Positions 21,001-24,000 of a stretch of 40,960 bases of DNA are shown here, piece by piece (the first letter of the stretch is position 1; each line of letters begins with the position of its first letter). Source of the stretch: a virus (lineage: Duplodnaviria > Heunggongvirae > Uroviricota > Caudoviricetes); IMG/VR virus record IMGVR_UViG_2534681674_000028, positions 1-40,960 of that record, one strand, 5' to 3'. Position numbers: made by a program.

Positions 21001-24000
21001 TTCCCGAATTGCTCTTCTTGAACTTGGTATTTTCGGAGAACGTCAATGACTTCAGCATTTGCACTGATGATGACGGTTTTTCTTATAACGGGTGAATCAC
21101 AGAATGTGATTACCGGAATTTATGCCAGTAAAGAATCCTGCCTCCAGGCAAGAGACGAGCAAAAAATTTCTGGTGAATGCCTCCCGGTAAAAAAAGTATC
21201 GCTGTACCTGAATAACGAAACACCGGCTGGATAACCCTCCAGCCATATTAACACCATACCAACGGATTAAAAATGCCAGCAATGGCAGGGATTTGTTCAC
21301 CCTTAAATCTGTAATGAGGTTTATCAATGAGCACTGATAAAGAAGAATTTGCGCTATATTGCGAAGCAAAAAATGACAAAGTCAGAAAACGTCTGGGAAT
21401 TAAAGGTGGTTTTTACTGGACTACAGCAAAAAAATTATCTGTTGCCATCTCCCGCTGCATTACCGCAATGGATGACAACGATTATGATGAAGACGACTTT
21501 AAAAAACCCGTTCGCGTCCATTTACCCGTTGTGAATGACCTTCCACCTGAAGGCGTGTTTGATACCGAATTCTGCAACCGATACGAAAAAGGCGGGGAAG
21601 ATGGCATTACAATGGTATTTATCGCGCCCTCTCCCTCCGTGCAGGAGAAACCAGCCAGTACTGACAATACCAACGTCAACGGCGAAGACATGACGGAGAT
21701 TGAGGAGAATATGCTCCTGCCGGTTTCTGGTCAGGAGCTGCCCATTCGCTGGCTTGCGCAACACGGCAGCGAAAAACCAGTAACGCACGTTGCACGGGAA
21801 GAACTTCAGGCATTACATATAGCACGGGCGGAAGAACTGCCGGCTGTTACTGCCCTGGCCATTTCTCACAAAACAAAGCAGCTCGACCCGCTGGAGATTC
21901 GCGACCTTCACAAACTGGTACGCGACACTGACAAAGTTTTCCCTAATCCCGGTAATTCAGACCTGGGACTGATAACTGCTTTTTTCGAGGCATACCTGGA
22001 CGCTGACTACACTGATCGGGGTCTGCTGACAAAAGAGTGGATGAAAGGAAATCGTGTTTCGCGTATCACCCGTACGGCTTCCGGTGCAAATGCCGGTGGC
22101 GGGAACAAAACCGATCGCAATCCGAATTTAGTACACACCTTCGATACGCTGGATGTGGAGATTGCAGCAGCCACACTTCCGATGGATTTTAATATTTATG
22201 AAATTCCGGGCAGCGTTTATCGTCGCGCAAAAGAAATCGTCCTGAAAAGAGAAAGTCCGTTCAAAGAATGGTCCGCAGCACTTCGCGCAACCCCGGGTAT
22301 TCTGGACTATTCCCGCGCCGCTATTTTTGCACTTATCCGGAGCGCTCACCCTGAGTTTTATCACTACCCGGGACGCCTTCAGGGGTATATCAACGCCTAC
22401 TTAACGGAGACTGATCACGAGAACCCCAGCAAGGAAACTCTCACTGCTGCACGACATACACCGGAAAAAGATATCCTGGAAGAAGTTAACCGCGAACTGT
22501 CTGCTAAGCAGGAAACAGAAGAAGAAGAAAATGATGAAGAAAAACCGCAACCATCTTGCGCAATGGCAGATGAACAGGCAACGGCTGAAACAGTGGAACC
22601 GGATGCAACTGAACATCATCAGGACACGCAGCCGCTGGATGCTCAGTCACAGGTAAATTCTGTTGATGCGAAATATCAGAAACTGCGGGCAGAACTCCAT
22701 GAAGCCCGGAAAAACATTCCGCCCCAAAATCCTGTCGATGCAGACAAATTACTGGCTGCCTCTCGCGGAGAATTTGTTGAAGGGATTAGCGACCCGAATG
22801 ATCCGAAATGGGTTAAGGGGATCCAGACCCGCGATTCTGTGTACCAGAACCAGCAAGAAACGGAACAGAACGACCAGAAAGCGGAACAAAACAGCCCAAA
22901 TGCGTTACAAAACGAGCCAGAAACGAAACAGCCTGAACCAGTGGCGCAACAGGAAGTGGAAAAAGTCTGCACCGCCTGCGGTCAGACCGGCGGCGGCAAC
23001 TGCCCTGATTGTGGCGCGGTGATGGGCGACGCAACATACCAGGAAACATTCGATGAAGAGAATCAGCCTGAAGTTCAGGAAGATGATACGGAGGAAATGG
23101 AAGGCGCTGAACATCCACACAAGGAGAACACTGGCGGCAATCAGCATCACGATAGCGATAATGAAACTGGCGAGACGGCAGATCACTCAATTAAGGTGAA
23201 CGGTCATCAAGAAATCACATCCACCAGCAGGACGTGTGACCATCTAATGATCGACCTTGAAACCATGGGAAAAAATCCTGATGCCCCGATCATCTCAATA
23301 GGTGCAATATTTTTCGATCCGCAAACCGGAGATATGGGACCGGAATTTAGTAAGACTATCGATCTGGAAACTGCTGGCGGGGTCATTGATCGGGACACCA
23401 TTAAATGGTGGCTTAAGCAATCACGTGAAGCGCAGTCTGCCATTATGACCGATGAAATCCCGTTAGATGATGCACTACTGCAATTACGGGAATTTATCGA
23501 CGAAAACTCCGGTGAGTTTTTTGTTCAGGTCTGGGGTAATGGGGCCAACTTCGACAACACGATTTTGCGCCGTTCATACGAACGACAGGGTATCCCCTGC
23601 CCGTGGCGCTACTGCAACGATCGCGATGTACGCACAATCGTTGAGCTGGGGAAAGCCGTAGACTTCGATGCCAGAACTGCTATCCCATTCGAAGGTGAGC
23701 GCCACAATGCTCTGGATGATGCCCGTTACCAGGCAAAATACGTTTCAGCTATCTGGCAAAAACTGATCCCGAATCAGGCTGATTTTTAATGTTCAACCCC
23801 GGTCGTTGCCCACCAGCTATAGTGGCGGCGACCATGATTAGCGAACGACGCTCATGGCAAGACTTATTCTGCTCACTGAGTGGGCAAAAGAGGAATTCAG
23901 TGAACCGGTCCCTACTCCGAGTACGTTAAGTAAATACGCTAAAGCCGGAATGATATTTCCTCTCCCCAAAAAAGTTGGAAGACGCTGGCGAGTGGATCCG

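Follow-up and report, generated by a model that had tools for sequence, protein, structure and literature searches.

The subject of this report is an exonuclease gene of a lambdoid prophage, part of which lies in a 40,960-nucleotide stretch of DNA (the window; positions 1 to 40,960 of the virus record IMGVR_UViG_2534681674_000028). The protein that it encodes consists of a RecE-family N-terminal module, an acidic linker containing CxxC motifs and, in the place of the RecE nuclease, a DEDDh domain. The original prediction, made from the sequence alone, had placed a RecE-like protein with a DEDDh 3'-5' exonuclease at its C-terminus and no recT partner at positions 21327-23789, and an open reading frame (ORF) of 820 codons is indeed found there on the plus strand. 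It begins with ATG, about nine nucleotides downstream of a GAGG sequence, and its product is 100% identical to RefSeq WP_000102125.1 ('exonuclease'). A copy of the gene for this RefSeq protein is present in NZ_CP074872 (Escherichia coli 2011C_4247), where it is the last gene before xis-int in a lambdoid prophage located in ompW. The parts of the gene are as follows.

21327-23789, plus strand: complete gene for the RecE N-terminal scaffold and predicted DEDDh exonuclease (ORF list; 820 amino acids; Pfam, PHROGs and NCBIfam matches)
21327-21497, plus strand: N-terminal cap, residues 1-57, an alternative variable module unlike K-12 RecE residues 1-49
21498-22436, plus strand: conserved RecE-family N-terminal core, residues 58-370, including the Pfam Exonuc_VIII match
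22437-23216, plus strand: acidic low-complexity linker, residues 371-630, assigned by composition and common to RecE up to residue 622
22968-23015, plus strand: CxxC-x7-CxxC, putative zinc ribbon, residues 548-563, conserved in the alignment with K-12 RecE
23217-23786, plus strand: predicted DEDDh (DnaQ/DexA-like) 3'-5' exonuclease domain, residues 631-820 (Pfam, AlphaFold2 model, Foldseek)

The C-terminal domain is matched by Pfam family PF16473 (Rv2179c-like 3'-5' exoribonuclease) over residues 639-810, with an E-value of 2e-67 and a score of 226.7 bits against a cut-off of 27, and the match spans profile positions 2-177 of 177. The DLETMG and HNALDDA motifs to which the original prediction had drawn attention are real, and are located at residues 643-648 and 793-799, respectively. 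In alignments with T4 DexA and with sequences from many genera, residues D643, E645, D743, H793 and D798 fall in invariant columns; the catalytic residues of Exo I (D-x-E), Exo II (D) and Exo III (H-x4-D) are all present. A search of PDB sequences returned T4 DexA (PDB entries 8kel and 8ken) as the sole match, with an E-value of 3.6e-6. An AlphaFold2 model of residues 625-820, calculated with a 20-sequence alignment, has a mean predicted local distance difference test score (pLDDT) of 85.4 and a predicted template-modelling score (pTM) of 0.82. When this model was compared with the PDB using Foldseek, DexA was the top match (E-value 2.5e-11, template-modelling score 0.74), followed by RNase T, a DnaQ domain, oligoribonuclease (Orn) and REXO2, all of them, DexA included, with a probability of 1.00. 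Structures of RecE and of lambda Exo are absent among the matches listed. The domain was also compared directly with the PD-(D/E)XK nucleases: Pfam DUF3799 gave no match, and neither did residues 592-866 of RecE by BLASTP or tblastn. The model and these searches bear out the claim that the C-terminus is of the DEDDh type and does not align with the nuclease of RecE; we conclude that it is a DEDDh exonuclease domain and not a PD-(D/E)XK one. Members of the DEDDh superfamily are magnesium-dependent and act with 3'-to-5' polarity. The same activity would be expected of the present domain by analogy with its family, and since its catalytic domain is unrelated to that of RecE, the expected polarity is opposite to that of RecE.

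The closest solved structure, T4 DexA, is a phage 3'-5' DNA exonuclease which has the DEDDh pentad in common with the window domain. The two are only about 21-27% identical, however, and DexA is a standalone protein of 227 amino acids from a virulent phage with several surface insertions that the window domain lacks. Other relatives are the standalone PF16473 exonucleases of prophages from Salmonella, Klebsiella, Enterobacter and others (about 180-260 amino acids), which are 55-64% identical to the window domain and occupy the same slot upstream of xis-int with no RecT or Bet nearby, but which lack the RecE-type N-terminal module and the linker. Genes for YfdP, YfdQ and an HD-type protein are often found beside them, whereas the window gene has DicB and YdfD as neighbours. 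Rv2179c from Mycobacterium tuberculosis, the founder of PF16473, belongs to the same Pfam family but, as a cellular exoribonuclease, lacks any phage context; it was not found when the window domain was searched against PDB sequences with phmmer at an E-value of 0.01 or below.

The N-terminal region is related to RecE over most of its length. In BLASTP, residues 58-622 align with residues 50-591 of K-12 RecE with 63% identity and there is no match beyond, which refines the earlier estimate of a RecE-like region covering roughly the first 600 residues. For residues 1-57, BLAST detects no similarity to K-12 RecE, the alignment beginning at residue 58; this cap is joined to several different downstream parts among representatives of the family. 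Within the core, Pfam PF06630 (Exonuc_VIII) matches residues 57-189 with an E-value of 3.1e-33 and a score of 115.8 bits (cut-off 25). Residues 1-622 align with profile positions 1-602 of 877 in NF007259, the NCBIfam equivalog for exodeoxyribonuclease VIII, but the score of 1005.7 bits is below the curated cut-off of 1269, since the final third of the model finds no match. In PHROGs the protein falls in phrog_607, phrog_2082 and phrog_20376, 'exonuclease' families already of the same architecture. The linker (residues 371-630) has a net charge of -41 and contains 15% hydrophobic residues. The similarity to RecE is lost between residues 622 and 623, which correspond to nucleotides 23192 and 23193, the tblastn match to RecE stopping at nucleotide 23192. 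The last residues shared with RecE are ...ETGE(T/V)AD, and it is there that the region of the RecE nuclease domain starts.

The Rac prophage RecE thus has the N-terminal core and the acidic CxxC linker in common with the window protein, and the N-terminal region is modular in both. Its gene occupies the same early-left place upstream of xis-int. The difference lies in the catalytic part, which is of the PD-(D/E)XK type and followed by recT in Rac, and of the DEDDh type with no recT after it in the window. The nuclease domain of RecE has been assigned to residues 564-866 and the N-terminal region remains a domain of unknown function, although full-length RecE improves linear-linear recombineering (PMC11611040). 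The exchange of catalytic domains lies exactly at the boundary of the minimal nuclease domain of RecE, which demonstrates that the N-terminal 600 or so residues form an autonomous module whatever nuclease comes after it. A domain swap as clean as this makes the function of the RecE N-terminal module, obscure for decades, more tractable. It also bears on recombineering, in which full-length RecE and the nuclease domain alone do not behave alike.

At the DNA level, identity to K-12 recE reaches 82-88% but is confined to nucleotides 339-792 and 1188-1858 of the gene. This patchiness indicates that the gene is a mosaic and did not arise by one recent single swap. The pairwise ratio of nonsynonymous to synonymous substitution rates (dN/dS), measured against the 91%-identical allele from ON470619, comes to 0.09 in the N-terminal core and 0.07 in the DEDDh domain, both of which are under purifying selection, and to 0.31 in the linker.

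The immediate surroundings of the gene comprise the following features.

20635-20686, plus strand: DicF small RNA (Rfam)
20861-21049, plus strand: dicB (Pfam)
21046-21234, plus strand: ydfD-like DUF1482 gene (Pfam)
23854-24102, plus strand: excisionase gene, xis (Pfam Exc; PGAP annotation at the matching locus)
24080-25210, plus strand: lambda-type integrase gene, int (Pfam Arm-DNA-bind_1 and Phage_integrase)

As had been predicted, xis and int follow the nuclease gene directly. The int gene marks the end of the prophage and its insertion site in ompW; in the matching locus an OmpW fragment is annotated just past int. The complete early-left operon runs from a RacR-like repressor gene (18598-19017) through DUF1391, a 216-residue phrog_2151 protein, DicF, dicB and the ydfD-like gene to the nuclease, xis and int. 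Phage Tritos and the Qin prophage of K-12 have DicF, dicB and the ydfD-like gene in this order too, and the longer series DicF-dicB-ydfD-nuclease-xis-int is kept in Tritos and in the near-complete prophage ON470619. No consensus promoter was found in the interval between ydfD and the nuclease gene. As the last early-left gene before xis-int, the nuclease would be made on induction or infection and not from any obvious promoter of its own. The right operon starts with YdaS/YdaT-like genes, a replication initiator, a DnaC-like ATPase, DUF1627 and DUF977, and continues with Ead/Ea22-like genes, an IS3-family insertion, DUF968, RusA and Q.

The absence of a recT-like annealase gene, which the original prediction had also asserted, was confirmed. 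When all 40,960 bases were searched by tblastn with K-12 RecT, the RecE nuclease domain, lambda Bet, Exo and Gam, and a single-stranded DNA-binding protein (SSB), there was no match, and no annealase family was identified among the neighbouring ORFs of both operons with Pfam or PHROGs. Annealases of the Erf, Sak and Sak4 types were covered solely by the Pfam scans, which took in the window ORFs and the cluster representatives described below. The window holds approximately half of the prophage but includes the entire early-left operon. The 216-residue phrog_2151 protein (19436-20086, plus strand) has no match in Pfam or PADLOC and no informative match in PHROGs; we note that it is the only sizeable gene in the operon without a family and the only place for a hidden partner protein. 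It, or one of the small early-left ORFs, could conceivably be an annealase in unrecognizable form. On the evidence of these searches, the nuclease is not half of an exonuclease/annealase recombinase of the RecET or Red type. A survey of 325 lambdoid genomes describes a class B 'Tritos' type, with phage Tritos as its prototype, in which a nuclease is present and genes for an annealase, SSB and anti-RecBCD function are lacking (PMC12315714, Genome Research 2025). The window shows the same 'nuclease-only' pattern, with an early-left nuclease gene and no gene for an annealase, SSB or anti-RecBCD protein.

The prophage is also rich in Chi sites. The Chi sequence (GCTGGTGG) occurs 13 times in the window against 1.34 expected, which is an approximately tenfold over-representation. 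Ten sites are on the minus strand (positions 109, 5731, 6048, 9569, 13547, 14191, 17920, 17965, 23221 and 23810) and three on the plus strand (4917, 7755 and 7807). One of them lies inside the exonuclease gene itself and another just after it:

23221-23228, minus strand: Chi (GCTGGTGG) inside the exonuclease gene, with another at 23810-23817

All 13 are inside the prophage part of the window (1-23817), and there are none in the 15.7 kb past int. Because the exonuclease, xis and int genes are on the plus strand here, the minus strand corresponds to the 'top' strand of lambda, and the orientation of the Chi sites is that which activates RecBCD coming in from the cos-right end. The same bias is seen in 23 loci with a fused gene of this kind, where Chi occurs 73 times on the strand complementary to that of the nuclease gene and 16 times on the gene's own strand. 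In the lambdoid survey, phages without an annealase or an anti-RecBCD function are reported to be rich in correctly oriented Chi and to grow better with RecBCD (PMC12315714). The prophage fits this class of Chi-rich phages, which make use of the recombination system of the host, and the presence of RusA and DUF968 in its right operon fits a phage which handles junctions made by RecA.

The N-terminal module is not tied to one type of catalytic domain. Its first 400 residues were searched exhaustively against representatives clustered at 50% identity, which yielded 221 clusters, 82 of them with representatives of at least 480 amino acids. Among these long representatives, the RecE PD-(D/E)XK nuclease was matched in 25 (DUF3799 being confirmed by Pfam in 23), a DEDDh C-terminus was found in 13 and RecT was fused straight to the RecE N-terminal module in two, for example P0292; the C-terminal region of the other 42 has no recognized domain. 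A word-index search with the same 400 residues gave only fragments, 96-100% identical. P0292 (703 amino acids) combines a K-12-type RecE N-terminal module with a RecT domain and has no nuclease; it is a candidate natural fusion, or else a deletion or assembly artefact. In P0294 (805 amino acids) a K-12-type RecE N-terminus precedes a DEDDh domain. 'RecE-2' proteins without a nuclease domain are mentioned in the lambdoid survey (PMC12315714). One way to read this variety would be that the RecE N-terminal region is a portable delivery module, indifferent to the nuclease, for at least three DNA-end effectors (the PD-(D/E)XK 5'-3' exonuclease, the DEDDh 3'-5' exonuclease and RecT itself), and that the DEDDh version is a one-protein recombination accessory which, without substituting for or blocking the host pathway, would work through RecBCD, Chi and RecA by trimming 3' tails so that RecBCD can load. 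We regard this general scheme as unlikely, but if it were true the N-terminal 600 residues of RecE would gain a testable function.

A related protein from phage Tritos, which has been deposited as a complete phage genome, illustrates the exchange at the other end of the molecule. TRITO_27 (823 amino acids) is near-identical to residues 477-820 of the window protein, i.e. to part of the linker and the DEDDh domain, and Tritos resembles the window prophage in its gene order, in having neither an annealase nor an anti-RecBCD gene, and in its Chi-rich genome. The first 245 or so residues of the Tritos nuclease, however, form a different module with no Pfam Exonuc_VIII match, and the N-terminal parts of the two proteins share just a short sub-region (approximately residues 270-360 of the window protein). 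The Tritos N-terminus is instead 99% identical over 256 amino acids to K-12 YdfE, which identifies the Qin pseudogene ydfE as the 5' end of a Tritos-type gene truncated by IS2. Two K-12 genes were considered as fragments of the window gene and rejected, as neither has similarity to it: ydfE, which belongs to the Tritos-type N-terminal module, and exoD of DLP12, which is a fragment of lambda Exo.

The original prediction had implied that such a protein is rare, and here it was mistaken. The gene is matched over at least 80% of its length in 1275 of 5426 complete E. coli genomes. Its 570-nucleotide DEDDh segment is present at 8112 places in 4084 of them (about 75%), with up to seven copies per genome, whereas the corresponding segment of Rac recE is found in 1736 (about 32%), always with recT alongside among the matches listed. 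In E. coli the DEDDh form is therefore commoner than canonical RecE, and it is this form, not the textbook RecE, that is the commoner protein built on the RecE scaffold. We note that pathogenic strains often have several DEDDh copies. The full gene also occurs with approximately 90-91% identity in the phage records vB_EcoS-640R1, vB_EcoS-813R8, vB_EcoS-689R5 and vB_EcoM-606R7. The near-complete lambdoid prophage ON470619 has no annotated annealase, and RusA is present in it.

Scanning one genome per species for the DEDDh domain gave 80 species-level loci, whose hosts range from Escherichia to Aeromonas and Pseudoalteromonas and include some alphaproteobacteria. Of these loci, 23 carry the domain as a fusion with a RecE-related N-terminal module and span Escherichia, Klebsiella, Enterobacter, Citrobacter and Kosakonia; the remainder are standalone or fragmentary, mostly of about 180-260 amino acids. 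In none of the 80 loci is RecT, Bet, lambda Exo or a RecE nuclease encoded within 9 kb. The integrase gene starts 210-376 bp downstream in 31 of the loci, a gap which leaves space for xis only, and in precomputed Pfam annotation the Salmonella and Enterobacter examples occupy the same slot upstream of xis-int. The lambdoid survey likewise places sporadic DnaQ-type nuclease genes usually very near int (PMC12315714). In Salmonella-type prophages, the genes before the standalone nuclease usually encode YfdP, YfdQ (DUF2303) and an HD-like protein, and sometimes include a DndB-like gene; in a few marine and other loci SSB is directly upstream, or RdgC or DUF2800.

This type of gene is thus very common and already annotated, and DnaQ-type or nuclease-only forms were noted in papers published in 2025. 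The value of the finding is modest but real. One practical consequence is that annotation needs correcting, as phage records such as those of ON470612 and Tritos give 'exodeoxyribonuclease VIII', a name which implies the wrong polarity and the wrong pathway.

In our view, the best explanation of these data as a whole is that the three-part protein of this Qin/Tritos-like lambdoid ompW prophage would serve as an accessory DNA-end processor in a phage dependent on host RecBCD and RecA. The anatomy of the protein and its family are established, its polarity follows from the family, and its role is an inference. We offer this reading tentatively, with doubt slightly outweighing confidence. Under it the phage would rely on host RecBCD and RecA for recombination-dependent growth, and the DEDDh protein would remove single-stranded 3' tails, or 3' flaps without homology, from the ends of phage DNA. 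Such trimming would be analogous to that by T4 DexA in double-strand-break repair, and also to that by host ExoI and ExoX, which blunt ends for the loading of RecBCD; the RecE-type N-terminal module might supply localization, oligomerization or partner binding. Taken alone, the role in end trimming with targeting by the scaffold is possible but distinctly more doubtful than the reading as a whole.

Several observations weigh against this interpretation. In the lambdoid survey, DnaQ-family 3'-5' exonucleases are said usually to lower homologous recombination, and int-adjacent DnaQ-type genes are not counted there as members of the recombination module (PMC12315714). The same survey links Chi-richness generally to the lack of an anti-RecBCD gene and finds it in Gifsy-1-type phages with RecE and RecT too (PMC12315714), so that it supports the dependence of the phage on RecBCD and not a role for the nuclease. 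The substrate could be RNA, as the Pfam family is named for an exoribonuclease. The N-terminal module also offers little structural guidance: a full-length single-sequence AlphaFold2 run gave a pLDDT of 38 with no usable model for this part, and a profile of the module searched against PDB sequences found no solved relative (best E-value 1.8).

The first of two alternatives that we consider improbable to a similar degree is a prophage defence of the HREX type, in which the DexA-like domain would degrade incoming phage DNA containing modified cytosine and spare unmodified host DNA. The structure of T4 DexA has been solved and an E. coli homologue, EcD, has been characterized, which is reported to degrade T4 DNA containing 5-hydroxymethylcytosine (5hmC), to spare unmodified double-stranded DNA and to protect cells against T4 ('HREX'; PMC12153337, Nucleic Acids Research 2025). 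Bacterial DexA homologues are reported to be concentrated in Escherichia, Citrobacter and Klebsiella (PMC12153337), genera in which the prophage gene also occurs; prophages are not mentioned in that report. The position of T4 DexA as the nearest solved relative of the window domain, the extreme prevalence of the gene with up to seven copies per genome, and its int-adjacent place, which is usual for accessory genes, would all suit such a role. The sequence determinants stated for that role are less accommodating. The 5hmC-recognition tryptophan of DexA, W152, aligns with Cys763 (Tyr762 being adjacent), and this position is variable in relatives (Y, W, F, A or R), while D90 of DexA, which is involved in tetramer formation and is an alanine in EcD, is kept as Asp714. 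The position of D169 is ambiguous, as it aligns with Phe780, between Asp779 and Asp781, in a loop whose alignment is uncertain. EcD, whose ends are known from its cloning primers (it begins MIDTET and ends TIPETY), shares the DexA-like superfamily and the genera but is a different, more DexA-like protein, standalone and of another clade, a distinction made partly from those primer-derived ends. Furthermore, the window gene lies within a repressed early-left operon with no consensus promoter before it, the PADLOC defence models gave no match, and a defence role would leave the fusion to a RecE scaffold unexplained.

The second alternative, of much the same low probability, is a nuclease of the lytic cycle, which would either scavenge nucleotides from host DNA or RNA or act in counter-defence by destroying host immune nucleic acids with free 3' ends. 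A role of DexA in scavenging host DNA is documented, RNase T and oligoribonuclease are among the structural neighbours of the domain, the founder of PF16473 is an exoribonuclease, and standalone homologues often have a predicted 5'-nucleotidase of the YfdR type nearby, along with YfdP and YfdQ. Temperate lambdoid phages, however, are not known to degrade the host chromosome, and no endonuclease partner that could create entry sites was found. PADLOC gave no link to a known defence system that would suggest counter-defence, and for either variant the scaffold shared with RecE, and its fusions to RecT, point instead to recombination at DNA ends.

Very improbable is a functionless mosaic, i.e. 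a RecE gene in decay, its nuclease end exchanged by illegitimate recombination, that prophages carry passively: its mosaicism against K-12 recE at the DNA level, the joining of the same linker and DEDDh domain to a quite different N-terminal module in Tritos, and the many database copies that are fragmentary or interrupted by insertion sequence (IS) elements (K-12 ydfE being one such remnant) are outweighed by an intact 820-codon ORF, dN/dS values of 0.07-0.09 in the structured parts, catalytic residues invariant across genera, retention of the fusion in at least 23 species-level loci from several genera, and its presence in the complete phage genome of Tritos and in near-complete lambdoid prophages.

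Some further features of the window lie apart from the nuclease gene. In the late region of the prophage, Rfam places AgvB (an anti-GcvB small RNA) and STnc100 side by side at 4063-4124 (plus strand) and 4125-4333 (minus strand), respectively. Three IS3-family ALIL frameshifting pseudoknots are found at 10758-10875 (minus strand), 26992-27108 (plus strand) and 30905-31021 (plus strand), which indicates three IS3-type elements; one of these (ORF 9942-11156) is in the nin region of the prophage and the other two are past its end. Beyond int, at approximately 25300-35300, are the ompW fragment, IS remnants, an EAST1 ORF, nleF, nleH1-2, a degraded integrase gene and nleA, the IS remnants and effector genes having been identified by collinearity with the annotated matching locus. 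This region is a second, decayed mobile-element region carrying type III effector genes.

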